Assembly (NCBI GenBank): GCA_044226015.1
Contig: JBGAHS010000001.1
Location: forward strand, 1,216,001-1,280,000
Origin: Candidatus Obscuribacteraceae bacterium
GTDB taxonomy: Bacteria > Cyanobacteriota > Vampirovibrionia > Obscuribacterales > Obscuribacteraceae
Direction of reading: 5' to 3'
DNA: 64,000 nucleotides
The first letter of the stretch is position 1; the number at the start of each line of letters is the position of its first letter. The notes under the pieces are model-generated. The model did no database searches. It had not been told where the DNA came from and worked only from the letters and a program-made list of their open reading frames with translations. Positions 22,443 to 63,886 of the stretch are shown one piece after another. A program made the translations under genes and the position numbers.

Positions 22443-23470
22443 TAGTCATCATCAAGTCCTTGATTCTGTCGGCTAATTGCATCGGCTTCGTCCTGTATAG
22501 CCTTTTCGAAATCTGAAGCCTTCCATCTGGCGCGTCCTCGACTTCGAATGATTCGCTTGTAGACGTTTCTATTATCCTTGTCTAACATTCCTTCTGCTGA
22601 CTCACCAAGCGTGCTTGGTTTCACCCTGCCTTTTCTTTTTTTGGCCGCCGAAAAAGGATCCTCTGGCTTTTTTAATCTTGGACGCGGATCTCGTCGAAAG
22701 TCTTCGAAGATCTTTTCCCACCATGGTGTACCTGGCTCTCCACCTTCGTCATCGGGGGCACCACCACCACCACCACCGGGGTCATCACCATCACCACCGT
22801 CCCCATTATCATTGCTGCCACCGGGATTACTTTGATAGCACCTACCAGGAATTAAAGGTTTCGAATTGCCAGCCCCTTGTCCAAATGGTACTAGGTTTCT
22901 TCCAAGAAATGAACCACGGTGTCCTCCGGGTACCGGAACTGCCGTAATAGCTAGGGTTCCATCAGGATCTACCGCCAGAATCGGATTGTTTTCAACATAG
23001 TCGAAAAGATTGATTCCGCCGATTTCACCGAGTGGATCTCGGTTGATGAATCTGCCTTGGTTGGCCGAATATGCTCGTGAGGTAGTTAAGCTGAGTTGAC
23101 TTCTTTCGTGCAGGTAATAGCTTCCGTATCGAAACGTCGCTTCCTGTGCACCAGCCAGTTTAGTCACTAGCCCGTACGGATCATATCGGTACTGGGCCTC
23201 GATGGTCGTTGTACCACCGTTAGTCTTGGTCATCTCTGTCACAGAGCCTTCGTGATTCTGCGTATAAAAATAGCTGGCACTTGGAGATGAAAGTAAAATT
23301 TGGCCCAACCAGAAGTATTGTTGGGATGAATTACTTGAAAGATCTCTTTCCTCACATCTAGCCGTTCCACACCACAAATGTTGCTTCGTCGAAGTGACAC
23401 TGCCAGCAGTGCGCTCCTCGATTTTAGTTGCGCGCGAAAGTGCATCATACGAAAATTGGGTGATGTTTCC
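22442..23470 (-). CDS. Silent Rhs cassette 1 (core + variable tip)
   Basis: Open frame from site GNITQFSYD; RFINRDPLG..NLFDYVENNPILAVDPDG; Gly/Asp linker and basic tip. Confidence 0.88.
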   Translation of the reverse strand, partial: GNITQFSYDALSRATKIEERTAGSVTSTKQHLWCGTARCEERDLSSNSSQQYFWLGQILLSSPSASYFYTQNHEGSVTEMTKTNGGTTTIEAQYRYDPYGLVTKLAGAQEATFRYGSYYLHERSQLSLTTSRAYSANQGRFINRDPLGEIGGINLFDYVENNPILAVDPDGTLAITAVPVPGGHRGSFLGRNLVPFGQGAGNSKPLIPGRCYQSNPGGSNDNGDGGDGDDPGGGGGGAPDDEGGEPGTPWWEKIFEDFRRDPRPRLKKPEDPFSAAKKRKGRVKPSTLGESAEGMLDKDNRNVYKRIIRSRGRARWKASDFEKAIQDEADAISRQNQGLDDD

Positions 23471-23714
23471 GGTGGGATAAGTCTTGATTTCGGTGAAGTC
23501 GAATGATTAAGCCAAAGTCTCTGGGTGAGAAGTCCGTCGTGCTTTTAATTCTCCCAGTGGAAGAGGTTCGAGGTTTCCGCATCCTCACGGTATTAAAAGT
23601 CAGCTGAAATCAAGGCAAAGCATTGCTCAAATTTTTGAAATGCATAACAGCGTCCGCATCAACTATAATTTAAGTCACAGTTAGTTATGACTTACAAAAG
23701 GCCATTTTTTAGCC

Positions 23715-24317
23715 GTGGATCGATTTAAGGATTATTCGCAATTGAAAACATACTCGGACAAAGGGATCACCGAGTACGTTTCGGGGAATGGAGAGTTATT
23801 GCTTCTGGCAAGCTTTTCGACAACTTTTGAACGTGGCAAGTTGATTATCTTTGATTACAAAACCGAAACCAGAACGCCGACAGTAGGACGCGACGGAAAA
23901 TTACTTTTTAAGGGATTTAGCCCCTTCTTTCAATGCCGAATGGAATTCGATTTCAAGAATTGCCATCTGACCTACACTCCTTCGAGTCCTTCATTGAAGG
24001 AGCTAAGAAAAGGCGGTCAGCTCGTAGATTTGATTAGTGAAATAAGAATTGTCTCGATAATTCCTTCTATGTTATTTGGACTCTATTCTCTGCCATTTGC
24101 AAACTCAGAATCGATCATTGTTCCATCAGAAGTTGAACTCGCAACAGGAACATCAACTAGAAAAATCCGCTACAACAACAGTGGCTACATTGAGGAAATC
24201 ATCAGAGACTCCGTACAGGAAGACCGCTCTGTTTTCCTTTCTGGATTGCAGCTAACTAAATCTACTTCCTCTTACCGCACTAAAATTCTGGTGGCAGAAC
24301 ATCGCCGGGAGGAGTAA
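23715..24317 (+). CDS. Convergent partner of cassette 2 (Y..YSDKG..FSTTF family)
   Basis: 200-aa ORF overlapping the tip 3' end; similar to 29952 and 48780. Confidence 0.65.
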   Translation: MDRFKDYSQLKTYSDKGITEYVSGNGELLLLASFSTTFERGKLIIFDYKTETRTPTVGRDGKLLFKGFSPFFQCRMEFDFKNCHLTYTPSSPSLKELRKGGQLVDLISEIRIVSIIPSMLFGLYSLPFANSESIIVPSEVELATGTSTRKIRYNNSGYIEEIIRDSVQEDRSVFLSGLQLTKSTSSYRTKILVAEHRREE

Positions 24318-25254
24318 CTCCCAGAATGCATAGCAGAATGTCCAATGAAAGTCTTGCTTCGTTCAATTGCAATCGATACTTTAAGGTGAAGTCGTCATTA
24401 CGGGCAGCTCGCAGGATCTCCCTCATATGTCTCCTTTGATATCTGTCCATGGCTCTTTGAATGCATTTATAAGCATCATCATAATCATCTCCACCTTCGG
24501 GTGGTGGAGTTATTTTGTCTCCGTCGTCATTACCGCCTCCGCCAGGTCCGCCACCACCACCGCAGCCACCTTTTTTGCTACCATTGTCAGGCTCATCGTT
24601 TTTTCCAGGTTTTGGCTCAGGACTATCGAGCATATCCGCTTCACCAAACCTAGTTTTGTTTCGCCCTCTGTATGCGCCGTCTGTAGCTAGTCTTCCGACG
24701 TTCATTCCTATCCCACCGCGCAATATCTGACCTGTAGGATCCGTCGCTAAAATTGGTGAGCAACCAACATAAGCATATAGATTCAAACCGCCATTTTCTT
24801 GGATCGGATCTCTGTTGATAAATCGTGCAGAATCGGCGCTGTAAGCCCGATAGACAGGCAGATTTAGACCACTGCTGGGATGGAAATAATAGCCCGCATA
24901 TTGGAAATCAGAATTTTGGGTACCCAGCAGTTTTGTGGAGCGACCAAACGGACTGTAGATATACTGGGCTTCTATAGTCGTAACCGGGCCCGCGACAGTC
25001 TTGGTAATTTCCCTTACAGAGTTCAAATGGTCCTTAGTGTAAAACAAGTCAGTAGCCATGCCGGTCGAAAAATTTCTTTGAGCGAGCGACAGAAATTGCT
25101 TGCCATTACTCAAACTACCAATGCCATCTCTCTCCTCACACCTGGACAAGCCACACCATACATGTTGCTTCGTCGAAGTGACACTGCCAGCAGTGCGCTC
25201 CTCGATTTTCGTGGCGCGCGAAAGTGCATCATACGAAAATTGGGTGATGTTCCA
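24280..25254 (-). CDS. Silent Rhs cassette 2
   Basis: Open from the site (in-frame TAA just upstream, so it cannot start earlier); RFINRDPI..PILATDPTG; Gly linker + helical tip. Confidence 0.88.
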   Translation of the reverse strand, partial: WNITQFSYDALSRATKIEERTAGSVTSTKQHVWCGLSRCEERDGIGSLSNGKQFLSLAQRNFSTGMATDLFYTKDHLNSVREITKTVAGPVTTIEAQYIYSPFGRSTKLLGTQNSDFQYAGYYFHPSSGLNLPVYRAYSADSARFINRDPIQENGGLNLYAYVGCSPILATDPTGQILRGGIGMNVGRLATDGAYRGRNKTRFGEADMLDSPEPKPGKNDEPDNGSKKGGCGGGGGPGGGGNDDGDKITPPPEGGDDYDDAYKCIQRAMDRYQRRHMREILRAARNDDFTLKYRLQLNEARLSLDILLCILGVTPPGDVLPPEF

Positions 25255-26272: not shown

Positions 26273-26295
26273 TGGTTTGGCTCCTGTCTTCCGAG

Positions 26296-27222
26296 TTATT
26301 CTATCGGTTTTCCGTTAATGCTTGTGATATTACCTTCGCTATCATATTCAATATTATCAGCTCCGCCAAGGTCTAATCCTGCATCATCTTTTACAGTATG
26401 CGTGCGTCCTCGATCTCCCTTCTTCTCCGTTTTCTCACCTTTCGTTTTTCCTTGCTCTTGCCTCGATTTCCATCGTTCCCTTTCTCGTTCCCTGTCCCTT
26501 TTTGATTTACCTCGACTAGGGCACTCGTTGTCTTTCCCTTTTGGCCCCATTGCATTCGATAGATTCTGGAGCGCGTTCTGTATACCTGGTGCTGCGATTC
26601 TACCGACCTGCTCACCGATCGCCGCGGCTGCCACTGCTGCCCCTGCGTAAGCAATTCCTGCTAAATACGGAACCGCTGGGGCTAAGGCTACAAGAAATGT
26701 TCCATTCGGGTCTTTATAGTTTATTGGATTATCTGCAACATATGAGTAAAGATTCGCGCCCCCGTTTTCCTCAAGCATGTCTCTAGTGATGAACCGTCCT
26801 AGGCTTGAATAATAAGCCCGCGTAACAGTTAGGTTTAGTCCACTTCTACTATGTATGTAGTAACTAGCATACTGAAACTCTGATTCCAAGGAGCCGGCGA
26901 GTTTTGTTGGACGTCCATACGGATCAAAATCATATTGCGCTTCAATTGTGGTGGTGCCAGAAACTGTTTTTGTCATTTCTCGCGTTGAACCAATGTGATC
27001 TTGAGTGTAGAAATAGTTAGTAGGTGTGCTGCTGGTGAAATTGCTCTGACCAAATTCGAAAAATTGCTTGCCATTACTCAAGCTGCCCGACGCATTTCTT
27101 TCCTCGCACCTTTGCGTCCCGCACCAAATATGTTGCTTCGTCGAAGTGACACTGCCAGCAGTGCGCTCTTCGATTTTTGTGGCGCGCGAAAGTGCATCAT
27201 ACGAAAATTGGGTGATGTTCCC
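26296..27222 (-). CDS. Silent Rhs cassette 3
   Basis: Site, Rhs core, NPINYKDPNG, hydrophobic Ala-rich segment, charged tip. Confidence 0.88.
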   Translation of the reverse strand, partial: GNITQFSYDALSRATKIEERTAGSVTSTKQHIWCGTQRCEERNASGSLSNGKQFFEFGQSNFTSSTPTNYFYTQDHIGSTREMTKTVSGTTTIEAQYDFDPYGRPTKLAGSLESEFQYASYYIHSRSGLNLTVTRAYYSSLGRFITRDMLEENGGANLYSYVADNPINYKDPNGTFLVALAPAVPYLAGIAYAGAAVAAAAIGEQVGRIAAPGIQNALQNLSNAMGPKGKDNECPSRGKSKRDRERERERWKSRQEQGKTKGEKTEKKGDRGRTHTVKDDAGLDLGGADNIEYDSEGNITSINGKPIE

Positions 27223-28845: not shown

Positions 28846-29823
28846 CTACATTGCCTGTTTGAGTGGAGGAGTAGCTGGACAACCACCATCGTCGCCGTTG
28901 CCAGGACCTGGACAGCGTCGGGCGCATTCCTGCCCAGCTTGCGAAGCAAAGTTATAGGGTACACCATAATTCAACAACAGTTGAGCAGCAGCAGCACAGG
29001 CTGCCTTACAACGCTGTCCTCCATTAGGTCCGCGGAAATGAGACCAAGGCTGGCCGGGCCAGATTACGAATGGGTCTCTGTACTGGTCTGGGTGTTCCCA
29101 TTCTCTCCATTCTGGAAGTGGTGCAAGGTTTGGATCAAACAGTTCCTTAATGTTTTTGTTTAACTCCGGTCCATGATCTTGCAACCATTTCATAGCCGCG
29201 GCGGCTGAAGCAGCAGCACCAGCTGCAGCGGCCGCACCACCTACAGTAAGTGAACCTGCTTCTGTAGCAATGATCGGAATCGCCAGTACAGCAAGGATTT
29301 CGCCACTAGGGTCTGTAAATTTTGTGGGCATGTTGTTTACATAGGCATAAACATTGAGTCCTCCGTTTTCAGCAAGTGGATCTCTGTTCAAAAATCTCCC
29401 AAAGCTTGAAGAGTACTCTCTGTATACTGGCGCACTCAATCCAGCACGTGTTTGGAAAAAATATCCAGCATAAAGAAAGTCCGAGTCAGTGCCACCTGCA
29501 AGCTTGCTTCGACCTCCAAATGGATCGTAGCCATACTGAGACTCAATTGTCGTTGTTCCTGCAACATATTTTGACATTTCTCTCACTGAGCCTAAGTGGT
29601 CCGCAGAGTAGACGTAACTTGTGGCTGCACCTCCAGAGTAATTTACTTGACCGAGTCCTAAAAACACCTTGCCGTCATTCAAGCTACCCGAGGCGTTGCG
29701 CTCCTCGCATCTACTTAAGTGTGACCACAAATGTTGCTTCGTCGAAGTGACACTGCCAGCAGTGCGCTCCTCAATTTTCGTGGCGCGCGAAAGTGCATCA
29801 TACGAAAATTGGGTGATGTTTCC
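28846..29823 (-). CDS. Silent Rhs cassette 4
   Basis: Site, core, NMPTKFTDPSG, Ala-rich segment, Cys-pair tip. Confidence 0.88.
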   Translation of the reverse strand, partial: GNITQFSYDALSRATKIEERTAGSVTSTKQHLWSHLSRCEERNASGSLNDGKVFLGLGQVNYSGGAATSYVYSADHLGSVREMSKYVAGTTTIESQYGYDPFGGRSKLAGGTDSDFLYAGYFFQTRAGLSAPVYREYSSSFGRFLNRDPLAENGGLNVYAYVNNMPTKFTDPSGEILAVLAIPIIATEAGSLTVGGAAAAAGAAASAAAAMKWLQDHGPELNKNIKELFDPNLAPLPEWREWEHPDQYRDPFVIWPGQPWSHFRGPNGGQRCKAACAAAAQLLLNYGVPYNFASQAGQECARRCPGPGNGDDGGCPATPPLKQAM

Positions 29824-30637: not shown

Positions 30638-31627
30638 TTATTCACCAAATATGTCTTTGATATTTGGATATGGATCTTTGCCTTCTTTGCACAGTTCAAT
30701 ATCCTCAATTAGGCGTGCAAAGTTTCTGGCTCTTCTTGCAGCATCATCGAGGTAATTCATAAAGTCTTGCCCTTCTATATCGCTTTCTTCCAAATGAGTT
30801 CGCAACCTTGAATTTCTGATTACCGCAGCTGTGATAGCTTTTAAGATGCAGTTATCAACCGGATCGGCGTCTGGTGAATTTTTGCCACCACCGCCGCCAC
30901 CATCACCGCCGCCACCATCACCGCCGCCACCACCGCCGTCATCGCAATCACCTTTGTCGTCGTCCTTGTCTTTGTCCTCGTCGTCCCCACTGTTATTATG
31001 CCTGCCTGGATGAGGATTTGTTGGTGCGGGAGGTTCTTGTGGTTTGGGCCTAGGAACTGGCATGGGACGAGGAATCATTAGCGGTGGTACCCGCATGGCT
31101 ATTGTGCCCATCCCGCTGGAGTCTTTAGATGAAACTGGGTTATTGTCTACGTATCCATAAAGGTTTACCCCGCCGTTTTCGCCAATCGAATCTCGATTGA
31201 TGAACTTAGCTCCGTTCGCATTGTAAAATCGTGTGACCGTTGCGTACAAAGACGATCTTGAATTCAGGTAATATCCGGCGTATTGAAAATCCGAGTCTCC
31301 GGAGCCTTGGATTTTTGTTTTGACTCCGTACGGATCATAGCTATACTGCGCAATCACGCCACCGGTGGCGTCAATCATTTCTCTGATACTTCCGGGTGAA
31401 GCATCCAAAGTGTAGAAGTAATTACTTCCAACTCCGCTCACGAAGTTCCTTTGTCCCAGAGCCAAGAATAGCTTTCCGGTGCTTAAGGACCCTGTTGCGT
31501 CTCTCTCCTCTACTCTTTCAGACCGACACCACAAATGTTGCTTCGCAGACGTGACACTGCCAGCGGTGCGCTCCTCGATTTTCGTGGCGCGCGAAAGTGC
31601 ATCATACGAAAATTGGGTGATGTTTCC
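30638..31627 (-). CDS. Silent Rhs cassette 5 (frame open to 31717 through the leader)
   Basis: Site, core, NPVSSKDSSG, Pro/Asp/Gly linker, helical tip. Confidence 0.88.
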   Translation of the reverse strand, partial: GNITQFSYDALSRATKIEERTAGSVTSAKQHLWCRSERVEERDATGSLSTGKLFLALGQRNFVSGVGSNYFYTLDASPGSIREMIDATGGVIAQYSYDPYGVKTKIQGSGDSDFQYAGYYLNSRSSLYATVTRFYNANGAKFINRDSIGENGGVNLYGYVDNNPVSSKDSSGMGTIAMRVPPLMIPRPMPVPRPKPQEPPAPTNPHPGRHNNSGDDEDKDKDDDKGDCDDGGGGGGDGGGGDGGGGGGKNSPDADPVDNCILKAITAAVIRNSRLRTHLEESDIEGQDFMNYLDDAARRARNFARLIEDIELCKEGKDPYPNIKDIFGE

Positions 31628-31912: not shown

Positions 31913-32476
31913 TTACCTGAATCGATTTCGAATATCATCCCAATCGCAATCTGACTTCCATCCACCTAAAGCTAGTTCCGGATGAGCTATAAATAAGTCG
32001 GTAAAAATCTTATCGGTTTCAACCAGCAAACTCCCAATTCGTCTTCTGTAGAGTCTTTTATCTTCGTCGCTCTTGCTCAATTCATAAAGAAAACAACTTC
32101 TATTCAAGAGAAGTGTTACATGAGCCATAATTTGCCTAATTTGGATAGCAATCACTTCATCATCAAAAGCTAAGTAATTTGCTACTTTTGGACGTTTCCT
32201 TTTCTTGGAAAAATCAGTTGGCGTATTGATCTCATCTGAGCTTGAGTCTTCATTTTCAGGACTCAGAACTTCATAGGAAATATGCCTAAATTCAGGCATG
32301 CGAGCCACTTCCAATAGTTCTTCAACGTTCGCAAGGAGCTTATGCAAAAGTGGATTGAGCAACTTAATCCGCTCGGCAGGTTCTTCCTGCAATGCCCACA
32401 GGGTGTACTTTAGAATCCACTCAATTTGCTCTATTGTTTCCTCTGTAGCAACATCACCATAGTTTTGCTTATTCAT
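31913..32476 (-). CDS. Putative immunity/partner of cassette 6
   Basis: TAATG coupling at 32476. Confidence 0.6.
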   Translation of the reverse strand: MNKQNYGDVATEETIEQIEWILKYTLWALQEEPAERIKLLNPLLHKLLANVEELLEVARMPEFRHISYEVLSPENEDSSSDEINTPTDFSKKRKRPKVANYLAFDDEVIAIQIRQIMAHVTLLLNRSCFLYELSKSDEDKRLYRRRIGSLLVETDKIFTDLFIAHPELALGGWKSDCDWDDIRNRFR

Positions 32477-33399
32477 TATCTCCTCCCATTCGGTATCCAT
32501 CGGGTAAAAGTTCTGTTCCAGAATCCTGTTTTGTACCAGTCTCCGCCGAGAGAAGGACAACCGGCCCTAGCCTTACATTCATCTACACATCTACGAAATG
32601 GCCACCCTTGGGGACAATGTGTAGGCAGTTCTTTACCACAATCGTCGATGCATTTTTCTTCTACTTTTTTACATTTTGGGCTTAATGGGGTCCCCTCCCC
32701 AGTTCCAGTGCGTGGACCGAACCTTGGACCCATGCTTCGCCCCATAGCATCCCAAAGATCAGTAAATGCGGGGCCAATTTCATGTCCATGTTCCTGTATC
32801 CATTTTCCACCAATATAAATTGCCACTGCGCCACCGGCAACAATAATGATAACAGGAGCAACAACCACAGCCATACGACCATCAGGATCAATTTGATTAA
32901 TGGGATCCGAATTCACATATTGGAACAGATTAGCCCCTGAAGTTTCTTGGATGATGTCTCTACTTATGAATCTAGCTAGAGTTGAGCTGTAACCTCTGTA
33001 TTCAGATAAGCTCAAAGACGCTCGCGCTTGAAAATAATAGCTTGTAAAAAGGAAGTCGGCAGCACTTGAGCCATTGATTTTAGTGACTTGGCCAAAAGGA
33101 TCGTAAGCGTATTGCGCTTCTATAGTAGTAGTGCTTGACACAGTTTTTGTCATCTCGCGTGTTGAGCTGAGGTGATCTGCTGTATAGAAGAAATTAGTGG
33201 AAGCTCCACTACTGAAATTAGATTGACCCAGTTTTAGAAATTGTTTTCCATTGTTGAGAGAGCCAGATGCATCTCTTTCTTCGCAACGAGTTTGCTCACA
33301 CCAAAGATGTTGTTTCGTCGACGTAACACTGCCACCCGTGCGCTCCTCAATTTTTGTGGCGCGCGAAAGTGCATCATACGAAAATTGGGTGATGTTCCC
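32476..33399 (-). CDS. Silent Rhs cassette 6, Cys-rich tip
   Basis: Open frame checked manually from the site; DPINQIDPDG; CKKVEEKCIDDC..CVDECKARAGC. Confidence 0.88.
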   Translation of the reverse strand, partial: GNITQFSYDALSRATKIEERTGGSVTSTKQHLWCEQTRCEERDASGSLNNGKQFLKLGQSNFSSGASTNFFYTADHLSSTREMTKTVSSTTTIEAQYAYDPFGQVTKINGSSAADFLFTSYYFQARASLSLSEYRGYSSTLARFISRDIIQETSGANLFQYVNSDPINQIDPDGRMAVVVAPVIIIVAGGAVAIYIGGKWIQEHGHEIGPAFTDLWDAMGRSMGPRFGPRTGTGEGTPLSPKCKKVEEKCIDDCGKELPTHCPQGWPFRRCVDECKARAGCPSLGGDWYKTGFWNRTFTRWIPNGRR

Positions 33400-36186: not shown

Positions 36187-36651
36187 TTAATGAAGTTCCA
36201 GCGCAAGCTGTCTTGATTTATGAGCCTTCATATGGATCAAAACCTTCCACTGCTTTCCGTCACGGGTCAGTTGCGCGCTCATAGATTCATAAATATGTTT
36301 ATTTTCTGGGGAAGTCGGAAATGGACTACGAAATTCCAACGGAAGATTTCCAATAGATTGAATACAAATGAGATTAAACATAGCGTTCTTGCTTTTTTTC
36401 AATGGTCTTATATTCTGCACTTTGCCTACTTCGTTGATCGAAAAAAAACACTGGCTTGAGGCTTCTTTAGCCGAGGTATCTATCTTTTCCGCACAAGCTT
36501 TTTGCACATTTTGAGCAAGAACATTCTCCATCTTGTGGTGCCAGTCCGCCCATGAAGGAGACTCATAAAAGGGCGCCGAAAGATCAGTGCTCCACGATGG
36601 TGTGATCACCGAGGCGGAAAAGAAAATGGCTAGAAGTGCTACGTTCCTCAT
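36187..36651 (-). CDS. Secreted putative immunity protein of cassette 7 (TonB-C-like)
   Basis: ATGA overlap with the tip stop; signal peptide. Confidence 0.6.
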   Translation of the reverse strand: MRNVALLAIFFSASVITPSWSTDLSAPFYESPSWADWHHKMENVLAQNVQKACAEKIDTSAKEASSQCFFSINEVGKVQNIRPLKKSKNAMFNLICIQSIGNLPLEFRSPFPTSPENKHIYESMSAQLTRDGKQWKVLIHMKAHKSRQLALELH

Positions 36652-42345: not shown

Positions 42346-42508
42346 GACAATCTCCTTTCGAAACGGTTCCGAAGAAGATATGCCGCAACCAAAGCAAAAA
42401 TTATGTGTCCCAAAACTCAATAGAGACTGACGCTTCTGCGTGCGGTCGCAACAAAAGGAACATAATCAAGAAGGGCACAAAAGCCAGATTATGTTTCGTG
42501 GAACATAA

Positions 42509-42953: not shown

Positions 42954-43122
42954 AGTTGCACAGAGCCAGGATGTAGATTCTTCTTCAGGGCAAGCCCTAG
43001 CAAGAATGCAGATTTCATCGAAATGGTCGTGCACGGCTGCACTGTTCGTATCAACCATGGATCGGATTTCACGCTTTTGGACCGAATACTTAGTTTCTTG
43101 TTTCTTTGCGGAAAGAAGAATG

Positions 43123-49381: not shown

Positions 49382-50384
49382 CTATAGTTTGTAACCAGGA
49401 TCTCTAGGAAGTCTCCGAGGGGTTAGTCCCGGAAAATTCGGCAAATATTTAGATAGGGGTATGCCATTTGGATGCCGATCTTGTCCTTTCTTACAGGCGG
49501 CAACATCACTCGCGAAAGTAGCCTCGGCGTCATCCTCATAGACTGGTATCATTCCACAATTCATCTGCTTTCCCTTATTTATGAGATAGTTGAAGAAAGC
49601 TTTTAGCAAGCAGTAGTCAAAGCGCGAACGATATGTATCCGTAGGTTGGTCTAGCGAAGGGGCTCCGCCGCCGCCACCACCGCCGCCACCACCTCCGTCA
49701 TCGCAATCACCTTTGTCGTCGTCCTTCTCTTTGTCCTCGTCGTCCCCGCTATTGTGTGCTTCCCTGGATGAGGATTTGTTGGTGCGGGAGGTTCTTGTGG
49801 TTTTGACCTAGGAACTGGCATGGGACGAGTCATTAGCGGTGGCACCCGCATGGCTATTGTCACCCATCCGCTGGAGTCTTTAGATGAAACTGGGTTATTG
49901 TCTACGTATCCATAAAGGTTTACCCCGCCGTTTTCGCCAATCGAATCTCGATTGATGAACTTAGCTCCGTTCGCATTGTAAAATCGTGTGACCGTTGCGT
50001 ACAAAGACGATCTTGAATTCAGGTAATATCCAGCGTAGTATTGAAAAATCGAGTCTCCGGAGCCTTGATTTTTGTTTTGACTCCGTACGGATCATAGCTA
50101 CACTGCGTAATCACGCCACCGGTGGCGTCAATCATTTCTCTGATACTTCCGGGTGAAGCATCCAAAGTGTAGAAGTAATTACTTCCAACTCCGCTCACGA
50201 AGTTCCTTTGTCCCAGAGCCAAGAATAGCTTTCCGGTGCTTAAGGACCCTGTTGCGTCTCTCTCCTCTACTCTTTCAGAGCGACACCACAAATGTTGCTT
50301 CGCAGACGTGACACTGCCAGCGGTGCGCTCCTCGATTTTCGTGGCGCGCGAAATTGCATCATACGAAAATTGGGTGATGTTTCC
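49382..50384 (-). pseudogene. Rhs cassette 11, frameshifted near-duplicate of cassette 5 with a different tip end
   Basis: About 700 bp nearly identical to 30915-31627; indels split it into 3 ORFs. Confidence 0.85.
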
Positions 50385-53297: not shown

Positions 53298-54156
53298 TCA
53301 GTGCCATCTGATACCGAACTCTCGAAAAATGTCGTACCATGGAGGATTGGCAAAAACAAACCCCTGAGATACAGTCAAAACGCAATCCTTGTATACCCCC
53401 GAGCATTTTGAGATGCAAGTGTCATATTGTTCCTTATCGATACAGCCACTGTCGAAAAGCTCCCGACATAGGTTTATGCATTTATCCCTATTGGTTAGAC
53501 AGCAAACTCTCGTACTACAGTTCGTAAATCGATCAGGGCGTCTAAATGCTCGAGCAGAGGAAATCGAGAACGAAACGGAGGTGCTACAGGCACCGGAAGT
53601 ACAAGCAGGCGTTGGGCTTCCAATTGAACCCAAAAGTCCCATTGAATCAACTTCTTCAATTGGTTCATTTTCTGCATAACAGTAAAGATTTGCTCCTCCG
53701 TTTTCAGCAATCGGGTCCCGATTGAAAAAACGACCGAAATCAGAATGATAATTTTCTGAAAACTAATAAATTCAGTGTAGTCCTTGGATGCAGGTAATAA
53801 CCTGCATACTGAAAATCTGCATCTGAGCTTCCAGCGACTTTGATAACTGTTCCGTATGGAGCATAGCTATACTGGGCTTCTATTGTCATGCCACTCACGC
53901 TCGATTGCGTCATTTCGCGCACAGAGCCTATATGATCGGCAGTATAAAAGAGGCTTGTTGGGGTAGCGCTGATGAAATTGGCCTGACCAAGTCCCAAAAA
54001 TTGTTTACCATTGCTCAAGCTGCCAGACGCATCTCTTTCCTCGCATCTCGCAGAGTCGCACCACAGGTGTTGCTTCGTCGAAGTAACACCTGTGGTGCGC
54101 TCTTCGATTTTTGTGGCGCGCGAAAGTGCATCATACGAAAATTGGGTGATGTTTCC
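53298..54156 (-). pseudogene. Rhs cassette 13, frameshifted near 53745, Cys-rich tip
   Basis: Site, core split across frames, tip with 11 Cys. Confidence 0.82.
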
Positions 54157-54634: not shown

Positions 54635-54636
54635 AA

Positions 54637-55683
54637 TTATCTCCGAACACCATTAGGATAAACGTTAGTATAACCACCACCGGGTTCTTGCACATCCCAA
54701 TGAGGTCCGCCATGAGCATTAGGAGATCCTTCTGGTCCAGTCGGTACCCAAACATTGCCGCTTGCATCTTCCCAGCCGTAGCCTGACCCATTGGGATTTT
54801 TTACCCAGTTTGGACCACCTTTGGGCTCTTCGTACCCAGTCGCTGGATGATTCGCTGGATTACCAGGAGCTTTTGGACCATTAGGATCGTGTGCATTGTC
54901 AGGTGGCTTCATGCAGAGGGTGTTCGGCAAAATACCTTGCGCTGGCTTGTAGCCAGCTAGTTGTCCAGCCAAATTGCTAAGTCCTCCAGCGAAGCCGCCT
55001 ACAGCACCAAGACCTAATCCCCCCAACCCAGCTCCTGGGAACGCCAAGATCCCACCTGCTTCGATTGAGATTGCACCTCCTGCAATACCGCCAGCAACCA
55101 TACCGGCCTCGATTCCTGCAACGGCCCCTTGGTTGGCAGCTGATTGGACTTGCCCCCAGTCAATCAAACCAGTTGGATCTCGCCGTGAAATCGGATTGCT
55201 CCCTGCGTAAGCATAGAGATTCGAACCACCTGCAATTCCAATGGGGTCCCTGTTAACGAACCGCCCACGAGTGGGCAGGTAAGCTCTGTAAGAGGGCAAC
55301 AGTAAACCGCTCCTGGGGTGAGCATAATAACCCGCGTACTGCATGTCGGCATCACCACTCCCCTGGGTCTTGGTTACTTCACCATATGAAGAATAGCCAT
55401 ACTGGGCAACGATAGCGCCAGCGCCATCAGTCATCTCCCTGATACTGCCAGGCGGATCATCCTTGGTGTAGTAGTAGCTAGTGCCACTACCACTTGTGAA
55501 GTTCCTTTGCCCCAAGGTGAAGAATTGCTTTCCATTGCTCAAGCTCCCCGACGCATCTCTTTCCTCACACCTTTGCGTCCCGCACCAAAGATGTTGCTTC
55601 GTCGAAGTGACACTGCCTGCAGTGCGCTCTTCAATCTTCGTGGCGCGCGAGAGTGCATCATACGAAAATTGGGTGATGTTTCC
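54637..55683 (-). CDS. Silent Rhs cassette 14, polymorphic toxin type 37 (Ntox37)-like tip
   Basis: DPNGPKAPG..WVKNPNG.GYGWEDASGNVWVPTG..AHGGPHWDVQ.PGGGYTNVYP. Confidence 0.87.
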   Translation of the reverse strand, partial: GNITQFSYDALSRATKIEERTAGSVTSTKQHLWCGTQRCEERDASGSLSNGKQFFTLGQRNFTSGSGTSYYYTKDDPPGSIREMTDGAGAIVAQYGYSSYGEVTKTQGSGDADMQYAGYYAHPRSGLLLPSYRAYLPTRGRFVNRDPIGIAGGSNLYAYAGSNPISRRDPTGLIDWGQVQSAANQGAVAGIEAGMVAGGIAGGAISIEAGGILAFPGAGLGGLGLGAVGGFAGGLSNLAGQLAGYKPAQGILPNTLCMKPPDNAHDPNGPKAPGNPANHPATGYEEPKGGPNWVKNPNGSGYGWEDASGNVWVPTGPEGSPNAHGGPHWDVQEPGGGYTNVYPNGVRR

Positions 55684-56367: not shown

Positions 56368-56790
56368 TCATAAAGCCACTCTGATAAATACTTTCTGATT
56401 CATCCTATCAACCAATTCACATGCGGATTTGAGATCAGTAAGTATTGTCAGAACTGATTTGTCAGTATAGTTACGAGCTATTACAGGATCGTATTTCTTC
56501 CATTGCTTGACCAAACTTTTTAACTCTTCCTTACTAGCTCTCCATAGAAAGTTGACCACGTCGGCAGGTATTTGGTATAGCCAAACGGTCTCCGCAACCG
56601 AAGTGTATAAGATCGGAATTGCATCCTCGTCATACTTAGTGCGAGTTACGATGGATAACAGGCTAGCCACGTTCGCTGGCATTAAATCGGGGATCAGTAA
56701 TTCCCCTTCTTTCTCAGAAAAGCCAGGGTGCTCACACCTCCGCTTAGCAGAAGCAAGTGTTCCGACAAGTATGTGTGTCATAATGCCCAA
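56368..56790 (-). CDS. Hypothetical, probably an orphan immunity protein
   Basis: MGIMTHILVGT..VWLYQIPADVV..W..LTDLKSACEL..VFIRVAL reads as a compact natural protein; head-to-head with the Rhs body. Confidence 0.6.
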   Translation of the reverse strand: MGIMTHILVGTLASAKRRCEHPGFSEKEGELLIPDLMPANVASLLSIVTRTKYDEDAIPILYTSVAETVWLYQIPADVVNFLWRASKEELKSLVKQWKKYDPVIARNYTDKSVLTILTDLKSACELVDRMNQKVFIRVAL

Positions 56791-59700
56791 AATAGAAGAC
56801 CCAACCTTCGATACTGATGGTACAAAGTGGATCACCGCAGCCGCACTCAACTCTGAGACCGACGGCTATTTCATGATTCCGTCAGATCAAATGAGCGCTG
56901 CGTGGACTTTGCTTGATGCTGACCAGGCAAAAGCAATTTGGGGAAAGGGTTACGCTCTGCTTCCTCAACAATTCAAAACACCAAATTGCCCCAAATCACC
57001 TTGTACAACAGGCTGCAGTTGCCCAGTAAATGGGATGCCGAAAGCTTCAGCTTTTTCTATGAATGCCACACTCAATATTGTGGATACGCCGCTGTCTTAT
57101 TCGCCACCAATTGGTCCAGACATGGGCGTGGTCGTTAATTACAATTACAACGAAGCTGAGCAACCCTCAAATTTCACCTTCACAAATCTTGGGCATAACT
57201 GGAGCCTGAATTGGCTCTCTTATCTCACTATTGATAGCACTGACCCCATTCATCGAATAGTGAAAGTGAGAGTTAGAGGCGGCGGTTATGAGCAGTACAC
57301 CGAGCCATTTGGGAACAGAAATCCTTATTCTCTTGCGATTATTGCAGAAGTAAACAATGCAGGAGTAATAAGTTGGGAACGACGGATGCCTGACGGAAGC
57401 GTCGAAAAATACGAAAGAAAAAATGCTGCCGGAGACACCTTCTTTCTTACCCAGGTTGTTGACCCTCAGAACAACGCAGCCGTTCTGTCTTACTCATCCA
57501 ACACAGTTACAGATCCAGGCTATTTCCGCCTGGCTTCAATTACTGATGCCTGTGGCAACTCTCCGATGACGGTGACATACGATTCAAACAGTTCAACAGA
57601 CCCCGGCTATTACAAGGTTACCAGCGTTGCCGATGGCTTTGGCCGCTCTGCCAGCTTTGCATACAGCTCTGACAAAAGCCAATTGCTCAGCATTACCGAT
57701 GCGGTTGGAAACCAGTCAAAATTTTCCTATCAGACTGACACGGACTCAACCTTTATAAACCTTATGGTCACGCCCTACGGATCTACTGGATTCTATCGGT
57801 ACACACCAGCGGGTGCGACGGGAGCCGTGCCGGAAGGAATGACGTTCACACTACCAGATGGTTCAAGCACACGAATTGAAAATTGGTTGGGCGAACTCAA
57901 ATATACTTATTTTTGGGATAGAGAAGCCTCTGAGATGTATCCGGACGATGCATTCAACAATGTCTACACGCACTGTCAGACTACTCGCTGGCTGTACACA
58001 CCTAATTCCGTTCAGACATCTATCCCTAGTTGGACCAGAAAGCCACTGGAAGCACCCGTAAGCTATTACTTTCCGGGTCAGACTGGCTGGAACCAAATTT
58101 CTGGTGGATTTGTGCGTGTCCAGCAGATGTCGCAACAACTGGTTCCCATTAAGAACACGATAACTATTGGCGGAACAATTACCGCAGGAAATATCATCAA
58201 GGTAGAACTCGATGATCTTGGTCTCCCCGAGGGACTTACACAGGTTTCTTACACGGTTGTTGCGGGAGACACGACAAGCACAATAGCTGCGGGGTTGGTT
58301 CAGAGTATAAACAATTCGACGCCCTTGCAAGCCTTTGGAATCACCGCCACTTCCGTGGGCAACGTAGTGACAGTTAGTTCCCTTACACCAAATGACTTTG
58401 ATAGCAGCAAATTTGTTAATAAGTCAGGAGCGGTAACTGAGACTTTGACTTTTACCACTGGAACCAATCGAGTTCAGAACTTCACTTGTAGTGGAACCGC
58501 TACGGCGGGGCAAGTCTACGCGATAACAGTCACTGACTCCACCTTGCCTGGTGGTTCACAAACTATTAGCTACACCGTTCAAACTGGAGATAGCAACGCC
58601 GATATAGCTCAAGCGCTGTCACTTGGCGTAAATGCAAATGCAAACCTTCAAGCTTCGAAGATTTCGTCTGCATGGAGTAGTGCCTTCTATATTGGAGTTG
58701 GACAAACACCTTCAAGTACAGCCAACCCTGTGATTGGTGTTCAGACAAATTCAACCAGCAGCACCACGTATTCTGGCACCGTTAATGGTGCTGCAAGCGC
58801 TAACTTTAGCAGTGCAACCAGTGCTCATGGTCTAGTTAAGGCAAATTACAACCTCTACACTGACGTTGGCAATCCGAACCCTACTGCGATAATCGATCAA
58901 TTAGGAAGACGACTAGACATCACTTATGCGGCAAACGACATTGACGTAATCAAGGTCCTCGAAAATGCGGCGCTGCATTCAAGCCTGGTTGGCTATTGGA
59001 CGTATGGAACCGTTCCACATAAGCCGACCGCTGCCTACGATTCATCACTGCAGCACACTCTCTACACCTACCAGAGTAACGGCGAGCTGGCTACCGTAAC
59101 AGACCGAAACGGAGCCACCACAACCTACAATTACAACGCCAACAGTTATCTCAGCTCCATCGATGGACCATTAAGTGGCAACCAGGACGTGACTACATTC
59201 TCCTTCTACGGGTATGGTCTGCCAAGCTCAATCACAGACTCTGAAGGCTACACGCTCAACTTCTCTTACGACGGTTTGAACCGTTTAACCAGCACTGCGT
59301 TTCCTGATGGCACCACAGAAGACACCAGATATAATCGGCTCGATGCTGTAATGATGTCTGACCGTATTGGCCGGTGGACTCAGCGAACCTACGACAGCAT
59401 GCAGAATTTGGTCTCCGAGGTTGACCCGCTTGGACGACAAACGAAGTATTGTTGGTGCCATTGTGGTGGTCTGGCATCATTGACTGACCCTGCAGGCAAT
59501 ACCACAAAATGGCATCATGACCTGGAAGGTCGCGTTATTCAGAAGGAATACGCTGATGGTTCTCATTACGACTACGTCTATGAAACCACAAACAGCAGAA
59601 TCGCTTCAATTTCTGATGCCATTCAGCCGACTCCGCAAAGCACCATTTTCACCTACAACCTGAATGATTCTGTTGCCGTCAAGCGCTATGCCAATGCCGT

Positions 59701-62680
59701 GAACGCAACATCTCAAGTTGTGTCTGCATTCGACCCATACTTTGACCGTCCGCAATCGATTTCTAACGGCTGGGGACAATACAATTACAAATACTACCCT
59801 TATTACAAGGACGCGTTCTTCAACCCTGATAATGGCTGGACATCAATTGTTGTTGGCGGCATCCCCGAGGTGCCGAACGCGACAGACACCATCAGTATTG
59901 TCTTCTACAGCTCTAACCTCGCGGGAGGACAATATACTTTCAATTACACGGTTCCTGCCGGTGATGTTGGAAACACGAATCAGCTAGCAACGCATCTTTC
60001 AGCTGCTATCGATGCTGATACGACTTTGAACAATGCGGGAATCAATCCTAGCCTCAGCAGTAATTTTGTAATTCGAATTCACAACCAAACTGTGGACCTT
60101 CGGGTGGCACCGACGGCGACTGGCGGAACCATTGTCACCTGTGGCTCAGGCAAGCTGAGCGATGTCACTAACACTGTGATTTCTAACTCGCAAATTTCCT
60201 ACGGGTACGATGGCGAGGGCAGAACTCAAGCCAGGCTCATCAATGGAGGAAACAATCAATCCAGGTGGACCTTCGACGCGATGGGTCGAGTCACCACAGA
60301 GCTCAATCCATTAGGTACCTTCAACTATGCCTACATCGACAACACAGCGGGCTCTTCAAAGGGTGTAAATCGACTCGCCTCGATTACTTACCCGAACAGC
60401 CAGGTTACAAATTTCAGTTGGCTGCCGAACATCGGCGACCAGCGCTTACAACAAATTTCGAATCTAAGTCCGAGCGCGACTACCTTGTCGAAATTTGCCT
60501 ATGCCTACAATTCCGCCGGTGAAATCACGCAATGGCAGCAGCTGCAGAATAGCGTCAATACCCACCTCGGGCTGGCTTATGATAATGCTGGGCAGCTGAT
60601 TACAGCAGTTTCTGATTCGGGCACTCTGTTCAAAGCATACATAGCCGGAACGCCTCACGCAGGCGATGTCGTCTCAGTTACTGCCTATGATGCATCGCTG
60701 ACCGGCACGACGCCGGTTGGCCAAGAGACTGCATCTTATACAGTTGTCGGCGGTGACACATCGGCGACCATCGCCACAAATCTTGCTAGCGCAATTACTT
60801 CCGTGATGGGAACGAATCTGGGTCTGAGCGCATCAGCCAGCGGCAAAGTTATTTCCATAACTACATCAGCTACCCGTGCAACGCAATTCACTTCCGCGGT
60901 CAGCGGAGTTGGTGCCACGGATACCATCATCATGGACCGTGGTCAGCCAAGCGGCAACCGACACAGCCAGCTCTACTATGCCTATGATTGCGCAGGCAAT
61001 CGCACCGGGGTGCAAGGCGACAGCACTGGCAGCTTCGGAGCTGGCGGTCTGAACACAAACGCCACAGCCTATGGCTACAACAACCTGAACGAGCTAACAA
61101 ACTATGCTCCCGGTGGTCCAATCAGATTTGAAGGAAGCACCACGAACCCGATCATTTCTGCGGTGGCAAATGTCACGAAAACGGTCACCGTTACGGGCTC
61201 GGTTACTGCTGGCGACAAATTGACGGTTAGTGTCCATGACCCTGCCATCACAGCCGGAAAGGACATCACCTACACGGTTGTCGGAGGCAACACAACTACC
61301 GATATTGCGACTGGCTTGAAAAATCTAATCAATGCCGACTCTACCCTGTCTTCGCTAGGCATCACTGCCACTTCAAGTGCTAACGTCTTGACCATTACAT
61401 CGACTTCAGCCAACAAGACAATGTACTCGGCGAGCAAGAATACTGGAGCTAGCGAAACACTGACTCTCAACGCCTCAGCCTCGGACACTGCGCTAATCAG
61501 TCCTTCGACTGCATTCAGCTCAAACCCGAAGCTTGCATTGAGTTCGAATACTGTTAAGGTAACGGCTAAGAGTGGCGGCGGCACAGCGGCAACCAATTCG
61601 TATCCAATAAGCATCAACTCGGCGTCATCTGCGACACTGCAATACGACGCGAATGGCAATATGACGAGCGACGGAACAAACACCTACTCCTGGGATGCCG
61701 AAAATAGGCTGATTCAGATTACTTATCCGGGCTCGGGAAATAACACCCAATTTTCGTATGATGCACTTTCGCGCGCAACGAAAATCGAGGAGCGCACTGC
61801 TGGCAGTGTCACTTCGACGAAGCAACACCATTGGGCGGGACTGCAAAAACGTGAGGAGAGAGATGGAGCAGGAACTTTAACAAATGGCAAGCTTTTCTTT
61901 GCAGCTGGAGAAATTAGCTTCGTAAGCGGAGCAGCATCAAATTGCTTTTTCACGCAAGACCATTTGGGCTCAACCAGAGAGTTTACTAGCTCAATCGGAG
62001 GAACTTTTAGCGTTCAAGCTGTCTACGCCTATTCTCCCTATGGGAATGCCGTTAAAGTCGCTGGCAGCAATGACACCAATTTCCAATTCGCAGCGATGTA
62101 CACAAACTTGCGCTCTGGAGTTGTGCTCACTTTAAAGCGCGAATTTTCACCAACATTGGGGCGCTGGCTCAGCCGCGATCCCCTTGGCGAAATAGTATCC
62201 AATAATCTTTTTGATTATGCAGACAACAATCCGGTATTATTTGTTGATGTTTTGGGACTAGCACCGATTACCGGTCCCACCGTAATCGGTCCCGCTTGCC
62301 CCATAAAAGGAAGAGATCCTTGCGCAGATCTACTGGCAAGTATGGCAAGCCGAATTTCTCAAATAAACCATGAAGTTGAATTGATGTATTCGGACCCTGG
62401 AGACTTGTTCCATTTGGCTTATGCTACTCCTAATCCTGCGAAAACTGGACACCGATATACTTATTTCGGACACGCTATGGAAATTGAAAACTACCAAACC
62501 AGTCTTGGTAAAAGTTATAAAAAAGCTGTCGAGATGGGATGTTTAGGCATACCCACGTCTGAAGTAAAACGAGCGCTAAATGCGGAGATTCCTATGATGC
62601 CTGCGGGCGAAACTGAGCTTCACTTGTCTGGAAACGAACTGAAAGCAGTTATGAGAATGCTCAGTGGCGGAAAGAAATAA
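56783..62680 (+). CDS. Large Rhs/YD-repeat toxin body with currently attached tip; appears 5'-truncated
   Basis: Many YD repeats, GRWLSRDPLG..NNPVLFVDVLG; begins in IEDPTF..ETDGYFMIP..W..AKAIWGKG; track residues 56507-56782 are probably the antisense of the neighbouring gene. Confidence 0.9.
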   Translation: MPKIEDPTFDTDGTKWITAAALNSETDGYFMIPSDQMSAAWTLLDADQAKAIWGKGYALLPQQFKTPNCPKSPCTTGCSCPVNGMPKASAFSMNATLNIVDTPLSYSPPIGPDMGVVVNYNYNEAEQPSNFTFTNLGHNWSLNWLSYLTIDSTDPIHRIVKVRVRGGGYEQYTEPFGNRNPYSLAIIAEVNNAGVISWERRMPDGSVEKYERKNAAGDTFFLTQVVDPQNNAAVLSYSSNTVTDPGYFRLASITDACGNSPMTVTYDSNSSTDPGYYKVTSVADGFGRSASFAYSSDKSQLLSITDAVGNQSKFSYQTDTDSTFINLMVTPYGSTGFYRYTPAGATGAVPEGMTFTLPDGSSTRIENWLGELKYTYFWDREASEMYPDDAFNNVYTHCQTTRWLYTPNSVQTSIPSWTRKPLEAPVSYYFPGQTGWNQISGGFVRVQQMSQQLVPIKNTITIGGTITAGNIIKVELDDLGLPEGLTQVSYTVVAGDTTSTIAAGLVQSINNSTPLQAFGITATSVGNVVTVSSLTPNDFDSSKFVNKSGAVTETLTFTTGTNRVQNFTCSGTATAGQVYAITVTDSTLPGGSQTISYTVQTGDSNADIAQALSLGVNANANLQASKISSAWSSAFYIGVGQTPSSTANPVIGVQTNSTSSTTYSGTVNGAASANFSSATSAHGLVKANYNLYTDVGNPNPTAIIDQLGRRLDITYAANDIDVIKVLENAALHSSLVGYWTYGTVPHKPTAAYDSSLQHTLYTYQSNGELATVTDRNGATTTYNYNANSYLSSIDGPLSGNQDVTTFSFYGYGLPSSITDSEGYTLNFSYDGLNRLTSTAFPDGTTEDTRYNRLDAVMMSDRIGRWTQRTYDSMQNLVSEVDPLGRQTKYCWCHCGGLASLTDPAGNTTKWHHDLEGRVIQKEYADGSHYDYVYETTNSRIASISDAIQPTPQSTIFTYNLNDSVAVKRYANAVNATSQVVSAFDPYFDRPQSISNGWGQYNYKYYPYYKDAFFNPDNGWTSIVVGGIPEVPNATDTISIVFYSSNLAGGQYTFNYTVPAGDVGNTNQLATHLSAAIDADTTLNNAGINPSLSSNFVIRIHNQTVDLRVAPTATGGTIVTCGSGKLSDVTNTVISNSQISYGYDGEGRTQARLINGGNNQSRWTFDAMGRVTTELNPLGTFNYAYIDNTAGSSKGVNRLASITYPNSQVTNFSWLPNIGDQRLQQISNLSPSATTLSKFAYAYNSAGEITQWQQLQNSVNTHLGLAYDNAGQLITAVSDSGTLFKAYIAGTPHAGDVVSVTAYDASLTGTTPVGQETASYTVVGGDTSATIATNLASAITSVMGTNLGLSASASGKVISITTSATRATQFTSAVSGVGATDTIIMDRGQPSGNRHSQLYYAYDCAGNRTGVQGDSTGSFGAGGLNTNATAYGYNNLNELTNYAPGGPIRFEGSTTNPIISAVANVTKTVTVTGSVTAGDKLTVSVHDPAITAGKDITYTVVGGNTTTDIATGLKNLINADSTLSSLGITATSSANVLTITSTSANKTMYSASKNTGASETLTLNASASDTALISPSTAFSSNPKLALSSNTVKVTAKSGGGTAATNSYPISINSASSATLQYDANGNMTSDGTNTYSWDAENRLIQITYPGSGNNTQFSYDALSRATKIEERTAGSVTSTKQHHWAGLQKREERDGAGTLTNGKLFFAAGEISFVSGAASNCFFTQDHLGSTREFTSSIGGTFSVQAVYAYSPYGNAVKVAGSNDTNFQFAAMYTNLRSGVVLTLKREFSPTLGRWLSRDPLGEIVSNNLFDYADNNPVLFVDVLGLAPITGPTVIGPACPIKGRDPCADLLASMASRISQINHEVELMYSDPGDLFHLAYATPNPAKTGHRYTYFGHAMEIENYQTSLGKSYKKAVEMGCLGIPTSEVKRALNAEIPMMPAGETELHLSGNELKAVMRMLSGGKK

Positions 62681-63317
62681 ATTGAAAGGACTCGAGGCAA
62701 CTATCGCTCAACTTTACGATTCCTTCGCAGAATATAGGCAAGGAAACATGAATTTGAGCAAGAGGCTCAAAAACATTAGCAACTCCGAAATATATCAGTA
62801 TGCCTCAGATGTGATAAATATTGCGGAGGTGGACGAATATCTGCATTACCTCCCGCGAATTTTGGAGTGTGCTACGGAATCTCAATGGCAGTTAGGGGAC
62901 ATCTTTCAAAATATCGGTATCTGTCTCCATTTTGGAACTGTAAGTTCTGAGCAAATTTCAACTTTGCGAGAATTCTTGCTGGAATGGTGGAGAATTCAAA
63001 TCCAGTCCCCTTGCACGATTACAACAATTTCTCCGATTGCTGAATTCTTGATAGACCTCAACCGAGGATTTGACGATTTAGAATGGCTTCTAGAGGTATG
63101 GACCGCTGAAAATAGCGATAACGCCTTTGCCAATCTTAGTGGAATGATCTATACCGCAGTGATGCATAAGGCATTATTTTCTGAGGAATTGAGCAGGCAA
63201 ATAACTCGATGGTTGAGTTGTGAATCTACTAGAAGTTGGATTGCTTTTGGAATGCAACAATACAGTGGACAGCCGTGGTGTAGCGAGTTAGTAGAAAATC
63301 TCAGCTACATCTCCTAA
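62664..63317 (+). CDS. Putative cognate immunity protein of the attached tip
   Basis: Overlaps the Rhs stop; LYDSFAEY..YLHYLPRILE. Confidence 0.75.
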   Translation: MAERNKLKGLEATIAQLYDSFAEYRQGNMNLSKRLKNISNSEIYQYASDVINIAEVDEYLHYLPRILECATESQWQLGDIFQNIGICLHFGTVSSEQISTLREFLLEWWRIQIQSPCTITTISPIAEFLIDLNRGFDDLEWLLEVWTAENSDNAFANLSGMIYTAVMHKALFSEELSRQITRWLSCESTRSWIAFGMQQYSGQPWCSELVENLSYIS

Positions 63318-63435
63318 TGAAGCAGGGGGTGGGTTGGCGAGTTTAATTGTGGAAACTGGGGACTAACGACGATGCAAACTCACACTTTAAGAATTCCCGT
63401 GTGCGGAGGAAATAGGCGCGACGACATCCAGCACA

Positions 63436-63886
63436 CTCTTGTAGCAAAGCTTCAGAGATTTTTTGCTTATCACTGTTGACTATAGGCATGCTATGCGTGT
63501 TTCAAAAGTCGTCGAATTGCGTCTGCGTACGCAAGGATCAAAGAACTATAGACTGAACGAGGAAGAAATGATTTCCATGCTCTAGTAATAGAGTAATAGA
63601 CAAGGTTTGTTAGGACAACCTGAAAGAACCGAGGATGCGGCTACGCGCAAAAAAAATAATTGTGTTTGAGGCGTATCTGCAAAGCAGCAGACTAAGCTGA
63701 ATTAAGAATTAAAAGTGATCAGACACCTAAGGAACCTGCAAGATAACAGTCAAGCACCCGCTAGCACCAGATCATTTTTCTTTTGCAGCACGGCACATGT
63801 TCCGACTTTTGCTTAGTGCATTGACCTCATTTCATCAGCGAGATCAAGTCCTCACGCACTGGAAACATCACCCAATTTTCGTATGA
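63436..63886 (+). repeat. 451-bp inverted repeat, right copy; contains a tyrosine recombinase remnant at 63448-63525
   Basis: SFRDFLLITVDYRHAMRVSKVVELR; ends in the 26-bp site. Confidence 0.93.

Follow-up and report, generated by a model that had tools for sequence, protein, structure and literature searches.

A putative recombination site at the start of Rhs toxin cassettes in a Candidatus Obscuribacteraceae bacterium, and a candidate invertase at a sister locus

Introduction

In the R64 shufflon the tyrosine recombinase Rci acts on pilV at in-frame sfx sites (arm, 7-bp spacer, arm) of which only the spacer and the right arm are conserved; this asymmetry has been proposed to restrict Rci to inversion, and an extra C-terminal domain of Rci is thought to enforce it (PMC11852207). 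For Rhs toxins, Koskiniemi et al. proposed homologous recombination over 522 bp after a duplication; without prior duplication of the locus, this route removes the old immunity gene (PMC3967940). The present report concerns a 64,000-nucleotide stretch of Candidatus Obscuribacteraceae bacterium (assembly GCA_044226015.1, contig JBGAHS010000001.1, positions 1,216,001 to 1,280,000; hereafter the window). It carries one long rhs gene. Fourteen minus-strand cassettes precede this gene and three plus-strand cassettes follow it, each consisting of a site, an Rhs core of ~170 aa, a variable tip and small genes. The hallmarks of Rhs polymorphic toxins are present (YD/RHS repeats, Rhs core, variable tips, small genes downstream).

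The 18-bp sequence at the cassette starts is very probably a recombinase site. The proposal favored here, with a probability of roughly 0.6, is that an enzyme of the integrase family without an arm-binding domain (armless) flips the central rhs module at these sites, fusing rhs to another tip, with inversion as the main mode of exchange.

Like the R64 shufflon, the locus has in-frame arm/7-bp spacer/arm sites at which C-termini would be swapped, an adjacent tyrosine recombinase (at a sister locus and in strain X2; deleted at the window) and sites in both orientations (PMC11852207). Unlike R64, the target is an Rhs toxin, with core, tip and immunity gene in each cassette; the constant region and recombinase are central, between outward arrays; and the arms are of 11 bp, with one near-symmetric copy and semi-conserved left arms, compared with the highly variable left arm of sfx. 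A main rhs gene with a silent array of cores, tips and immunity genes recalls Rhs C-terminal displacement and orphan tips (PMC2935791, PMC3967940), whereas fixed starts, arrays facing both ways and an attached integrase-family gene distinguish the present locus from orphan-tip rhs loci. Zhang et al. reported XerC/D-type genes beside polyimmunity loci, which likewise place a tyrosine recombinase next to polymorphic toxin arrays, but those loci hold immunity genes only and the accessible part of the paper describes no site within a toxin gene (PMC3482391). In the pneumococcal tvr locus a recombinase also shuffles gene ends at short repeats, but there the cargo is hsdS, the enzyme is another one, and exchange is by excision and reintegration (PMC6265443). 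A 2026 Stenotrophomonas preprint and an Ornithobacterium paper, in their accessible parts, invoke no dedicated recombinase for tip exchange, and integrase-driven Rhs tip exchange was not found in a search of titles and abstract openings that lay largely outside subscription journals.

The 18-bp site

A first-pass annotation of the window had described an 18-bp core that is invariant, wobble positions included, in 15 of 16 cassette starts. Fifteen exact copies were confirmed at 23445-63886 (13 on the minus strand, two on the plus strand); 100 shuffles of the window gave a mean of 0.08 matches at ≤3 mismatches. Every copy is read in frame as T-Q-F-S-Y-D at the start of the Rhs core, and the in-frame sites divide the constant region from the alternative C-termini. 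The genome-wide search proposed with that annotation returned 24 copies at ≤1 mismatch (23 exact), all on contig C11 and at two Rhs loci, with 17 at the window locus (two beyond the window end) and seven at the sister locus (C11:81161-100925). Over both loci 18 sites lie on the minus and six on the plus strand, and all 24 are directed outward from the central rhs module.

At the six wobble positions of the 18-mer, deviations from the majority numbered 0/90 in the window and 0/144 among the 24 C11 copies, compared with 94/375 and 142/600 in the following 25 codons, none of which was invariant (0/25). When the three divergent cassettes and one with a 3-nt deletion were left out, the counts were 0/120 and 85/500, with 4/25 codons invariant. 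The per-codon synonymous conservation asked for in the first-pass annotation therefore peaks sharply over TQFSYD, and the equally high conservation along the downstream core that was to speak for ordinary gene conversion is not seen (Mann-Whitney p = 8e-5 for 18-mer versus downstream wobble positions, a value that overstates the contrast, since the copies are related). Main-type and cassette-type copies diverge at the bases immediately 5' of the spacer, and the divergent cassettes, which continue as already described with DAASRCVK (37608), DGFGKCIK (63869) and DVFSR (45350), depart immediately 3' of the right arm; the 18 bp are therefore the only stretch common to all copies. The site of cassette 10, reported as decayed, is indeed altered in the window (~48273-48294), but in run X1, which may be the source of the assembly, one contig joins the upstream flank to 25 bases matching an intact site, so that the decay may be an assembly error. 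Here and below, run comparisons cover the contigs of runs X1, X2 and X3. The exact site pattern occurs in 1/107 genomes of the order, namely this genome, and the cassette-junction pattern gave no match in viral contigs.

The copy next to the recombinase gene of the sister locus reads ACATACAAAAA-CACCCAA-TTTTCGTATGA, with 11-bp arms matching at 9/11 positions; the arms of the other 23 copies match at only 3-5/11. Arm matches of ≥9/11 have a genome-wide frequency of 1.5e-4 in a fixed register and ~4e-3 over 30 registers. In view of this near-palindromic copy beside the recombinase, the 18-mer is likely composed of the 7-bp spacer CACCCAA and an 11-bp right arm, the left arm lying outside it. Spacer and right arm are exact in 23/24 copies. 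In run X2 the sole listed left-arm change raises the symmetry from 9/11 to 10/11, and at least 16 changes fall in the adjoining 52 bp. The inverted pair GGAAA(C/T)-8 bp-ATTTTC proposed earlier matches at only 4/6 positions and is not the best register; the 6-8-6 geometry was given up for one of 11-bp arm, 7-bp spacer and 11-bp arm.

A third array in this genome (C13:99237-105008 and C3:1-5681; L008, L005) holds six cassettes of another Rhs subfamily, which also start at CACCCAA; their right arm, TTTGTGCATGA, is 8/11 identical to the window arm, and the sequence upstream is unrelated. These cassettes face away from the C13/C3 contig gap, where no main gene or recombinase is assembled. The earlier suggestion of a tyrosine-recombinase core site embedded in coding sequence is supported, apart from its geometry, by four results: the sharp synonymous peak, the near-symmetric copy beside an integrase-family gene, the six cassettes of a second Rhs subfamily that start at the same spacer, and the fixed cassette starts beside related integrases presented below.

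A conserved non-coding motif (~TGAAATCCAATC) occurs 29 to 18 bp upstream of the sites in most of 20 cassette flanks. It sits where the cassettes of relatives begin and may be an accessory site or a relic.

The recombinase

The sister locus, whose recombinase lies 1.1 Mb from the window in this assembly, has the same layout with a complete center: a tyrosine recombinase, two accessory genes and a 2309-aa Rhs protein with a C39 peptidase. The recombinase gene (C11:89522-90643) stops 46 bp before the near-symmetric site. Its product matches Phage_integrase, with R, K, HxxR, H and Y invariant in 40 homologues, and the predicted fold resembles lambda Int 75-356 and Tn1549 Int 82-397. No folded arm-binding domain was detected (no Pfam or tblastn arm match; residues 1-39 of low model confidence), which separates the enzyme from lambda/P4-type heterobivalent integrases. 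The five closest homologues (47-59%) also lack PF13356, a domain that most lower-ranked homologues have. Unlike Rci (PMC11852207), the enzyme has no extra C-terminal domain, and arm-bearing island integrases are its closer kin; a plasmid search matched 77 records, and among the 15 matches listed none is annotated Rci. The integron integrase profile TIGR02249 scored 20.5 bits against a cut-off of 265, so that the enzyme is not of the IntI family; the locus is not an integron. Arm symmetry is lacking at 23/24 sites. Judged from its sequence, the enzyme is an armless tyrosine recombinase, neither of the Rci family nor an integron integrase.

In a quick, midpoint-rooted tree, from which the order of events is not read, the protein stands on a long branch within a 60-row clade that holds all but one of the Rhs-linked integrases. 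The homologues carry the name Candidatus Obscuribacterales. The armless profile at E≤1e-95 is found in 1/401 sampled genomes of the phylum; together with the site pattern in 1/107, this limits the observed system to the present species and strain X2, besides which one armless relative is seen in context. Separately, an arm-bearing recombinase homologue lies divergent from a distantly related YD-repeat gene at C4:23998-28097 (L178).

Use of the site by another recombinase, either the trio of genes in the array or the host XerC/D, is very improbable. Three tyrosine-recombinase genes do lie at 39144-42465, and a XerC-like gene ~17 kb past the window, but the trio, which is single-copy in the genome and lies next to an IS21 fragment, is missing from the sister locus, and the symmetric site adjoins the sister-locus enzyme, not the trio or the Xer genes. 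The right arm probably matches the XerD arm poorly.

Run X2, a 2016 metagenome of another study, contains an 8957-bp contig that matches the recombinase at 97% identity and the window rhs gene at 96% (two contig records, treated as one on account of equal length and depth). Strain X2 has the recombinase, the promoter region, the accessory genes and the 5' end of rhs, all of them missing at the window, where the deletion at ~56790 is spanned by an X1 contig. Since X2 links the recombinase to the window rhs gene, the window locus once had the module, which has since been deleted here. Because its rhs gene is without the secretion-related start, the window locus is probably disabled and acts as a store of tips for the sister locus. 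Contigs of strain X2 cover some window cassettes and not others.

A 582-bp X3 contig that joins the recombinase flank to a window-type cassette was rejected as a likely assembly chimera, because the switch falls downstream of the site within 34 bp of identical sequence, which exceeds the 31-base word of the assembler; it has five mismatches to the sister-locus site and six to site 50376. Apparent 'opposite strand' contig joints were not used either, as cassettes fit several homologous cores at 80% likeness.

Integrases and Rhs cassettes in relatives

Among 104 genomes of the family, the 22 closest integrases come from 13 genomes. An Rhs core lies within 3.5 kb of 21/22 of these, of 12/28 in the next tier and of 1/19 distant controls (one of 29 middle-tier integrases is not in the count, and one of 20 control loci was dropped because its match was too short). 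The usual order is rhs, tip, arm-bearing integrase, 125-450 bp and a silent tip, sometimes repeated several times; a direct tandem of rhs, tip, integrase, site and tip is found in G068, G017, G076, G084 and G069. The 75 distinct cores comprise 42 with long upstream homology, 26 that start at one nucleotide and seven classed as starting later. The 26 short cassettes start at AGAT, 27 bp upstream of the position of the window-type spacer, each position of AGAT being shared by 25-26/26 and positions upstream by ≤17/26; two of the seven later-start cores also show AGAT.

This pattern is that of putative elements whose integration point in rhs is fixed and which displace the old tip downstream. Such elements resemble dusA-associated integrases in the fixed attachment point within a gene, the new gene end supplied by the element and the tandem stacking, but dusA elements restore an equivalent gene end, whereas here a new toxin tip and immunity gene are brought in (PMC4482086). 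The armless relatives with context, L151 (54%) and G061 (43%), have cassettes that start in the window-type register. At L151, the closest such homologue, the flanking sites are in the +1 register, and their right arms are 9-10/11 identical to that of the window sites. A scan for 11-bp arms at 15 post-integrase sites in relatives gave best matches of 6-8/11, with a clear in-register pair in only one G017 site. The tandem accretion of cis-mobilizable elements (CIMEs) is a parallel to the layout in relatives.

The rival view without any site-specific step, in which RecA-type recombination or gene conversion acts and the 18-mer is the most homogenized edge of the Rhs core, is improbable, even though it is the published model for rhs genes (PMC2935791, PMC3967940). 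It is favored by the ~90 bp of similarity downstream of the site, by long shared tracts away from it, and by integrase-free arrays with long identical stretches in G037. It leaves unexplained the confinement of invariance to 18 bp, surviving in three divergent cassettes, as well as the 9-10/11 inverted arm beside the recombinase, the fixed start nucleotides and the 21/22 integrase association; the published model also expects core fragments of variable length (PMC2935791). The off-site tracts and the downstream similarity nevertheless indicate that homologous recombination acts too.

One integrase-free array, L076 (G037:C3), has five cores with long near-identical upstream stretches. No integrase match was found within 20 kb of it, and it offers a contrast of the homologous-recombination type.

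Inversion and excision

In the proposed mechanism the enzyme would bind the right arm and exchange strands within CACCCAA. An exchange between one site on the left and one on the right would invert the central module and join the Rhs body in frame to a different tip, all tips and immunity genes being retained. All 24 sites point away from the module, and inversions would therefore swap tips. The weak left arms may, as has been proposed for R64 sfx, restrict deletion between sites of the same direction. Any cassette would be within reach of two flips, even were the symmetric site and a single partner the only reactive ones. A comparable inversion occurs at vsa of Mycoplasma pulmonis, where the expression site is recoupled to silent 3' parts; its cargo is a lipoprotein and its enzyme a different one.

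Several observations weigh against inversion or against the site as drawn here. The window locus has no cognate recombinase in this assembly, and no inverted or rejoined molecule was found among the contigs of runs X1-X3. In the structural model the enzyme closes with a helix at 339 followed by a 17-aa tail, without the extra C-terminal domain of Rci. The armless homologue at L151 sits between two same-direction sites, and seven of the 22 top integrases come from one genome. Mosaic boundaries lie off the site too (tracts of 173, 715 and 944 bp), and most cassettes keep ~85-95% identity over ~90 bp downstream of it. Left arms are non-palindromic in 23 copies yet semi-conserved, several positions reaching 95-100% in 20 cassettes. 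The right-arm 11-mer also occurs in 5/9 Rhs copies with other spacers on C2, C3 and C5, so that part of its conservation may reflect descent or codon habit.

The main rival retains site and enzyme, but has cassettes excised as circles and re-integrated at the main-gene or recombinase-adjacent site, in the manner of an integron or tvr, the two-sided layout being a frozen relic of one old rearrangement. The direct tandem layouts in relatives agree with this, as do the direct sites at L151, which fit integration and excision rather than inversion; 13/15 window sites are in direct order, strain X2 covers only part of the cassettes, and the near-symmetric site by the recombinase resembles a primary docking site. 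Excision is nonetheless judged unlikely: outward arrays flank the module on both sides at both loci, and apparently a third time across the C13/C3 gap, and free excision between direct sites should erode arrays of 14 cassettes.

For the inversion system, descent from the arm-bearing integrases of small elements that enter rhs genes and displace the tip in related Obscuribacterales is envisaged. A tentative extension, held with somewhat less than even confidence, is that an Obscuribacterales integrase family is dedicated to Rhs genes: arm-bearing members would travel on small mobile elements, enter at a fixed codon and bring a new tip, and one member would have lost the arm-binding domain, moved its target by 27 bp and become the invertase of an active multi-locus shufflon with >20 tips.

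Organization of the window

The features of the window locus are as follows.

22442..23462, minus strand: outermost left cassette, site 23445-23462, Rhs_assc_core above cut-off; followed by a 248-aa open reading frame (21696-22442)
24280..25246, minus strand: cassette, site 25229-25246
26296..27214, minus strand: cassette, site 27197-27214, then a DUF4279 gene (25823-26173)
28846..29815, minus strand: cassette, site 29798-29815
30638..31619, minus strand: cassette, site 31602-31619
32476..33391, minus strand: cassette, site 33374-33391
36648..37608, minus strand: divergent cassette DAASRCVK, site 37591-37608, weak sub-cut-off Peptidase_M91 match
39144..42984, minus strand: three tyrosine-recombinase genes in tandem, with a fragment of an IS21 transposase, within the array
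44291..45523, minus strand: cassette, site 45333-45350, retaining 173 bp of main-gene-type upstream sequence (98%)
46070..46958, minus strand: cassette, site 46941-46958
47641..48294, minus strand: cassette 10; its site (48273-48294) is altered here, whereas an X1 contig has it apparently intact
50019..50376, minus strand: cassette, site 50359-50376, frame stopping after 118 aa
50935..51946, minus strand: cassette, site 51929-51946
53740..54148, minus strand: cassette, site 54131-54148, frame stopping after 135 aa in this assembly
54637..55675, minus strand: silent cassette, site 55658-55675, Rhs core and Ntox37 tip
56368..56850, minus strand: 160-aa open reading frame, likely immunity gene of the cassette cut by the deletion
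56507..62680, plus strand: main rhs gene, open frame of 2057 aa (RHS_repeat, Rhs_assc_core)
56788..56790, no strand: deletion junction, cassette tail fused to rhs codon ~335, from comparison with strain X2
61733-61743, plus strand: left arm of the main-gene site, coding, 5/11 symmetric
61744..61761, plus strand: expression-type site in the main gene, spacer CACCCAA and right arm TTTTCGTATGA
62664..63317, plus strand: 217-aa open reading frame just after the main tip, putative immunity gene by position, no Pfam match
63436..63886, plus strand: 451 bp that duplicate 55658-56108 perfectly in inverted orientation, up to the last base of the right arm
63869..63886, plus strand: site of divergent cassette DGFGKCIK, which extends past the window end
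69207 and 71839, plus strand: two more sites beyond the window end

Compared with the sister protein of 2309 aa, the main rhs gene is short of ~335 N-terminal residues, which comprise a signal-like start and the C39 peptidase. For 11/16 cassettes with an exact site the upstream open frame has no ATG, and Ntox37 was found in one of 15 tips scanned. The cassette at 50019-50376 and those at 31619 and 69207 have ~715 bp in common. Both copies of the 451-bp duplicate coincide with breaks in X1 contigs; its end at the arm was not counted as proof, since gene conversion also stops where homology ends. Between 47641 and 50108, X1 contigs (and X2 at three positions) differ from the window by substitutions and small gaps, and some cassette frameshifts may therefore be assembly errors.

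The recombinase trio, presumably RIT-like, and the IS21 fragment are read as passengers in the array. For this insertion (39144-42984), terminal inverted repeats of ≥18 bp were not found. A group II intron-type reverse transcriptase fragment at 35552-36079 is fused to a cysteine-rich tip-like sequence. Insertion-sequence-like genes, which we take to be IS66-like, lie between plus-strand cassettes past the window end (65884-68788), and the same genes occur at C3:412843-415747. No tRNA was found near the window or the sister locus.

A fourth array (C3:409890-421271 and C5:263378-274600; L006, L007) has mixed orientations; six of its cassettes begin at a common point ~135 bp before the TQF codons. 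Their flanks are of two types, one of which has a GCACC..GGTG motif like that upstream of the post-integrase sites in relatives. A separate 2886-aa Rhs gene without cassettes (C2:16054-30149, L004) is followed by a small integrase-like gene; its tip and the next gene resemble the outermost cassette of the window, and the contig ends overlap by 140 bp.

Significance

Tip change in polymorphic toxins is a standing question that has so far been answered by homologous recombination. As read here, the system works like a shufflon, without an Rci-family enzyme and on a substrate whose mechanism was open; a site-specific enzyme with a 7-bp crossover is a direct, testable mechanism. In the family, integrase and invertase form the ends of a natural series, and tools for DNA shuffling could draw on its new pair of recombinase and site. 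If the proposal is true, inversion lets the cell change its toxin without the loss of any immunity gene.

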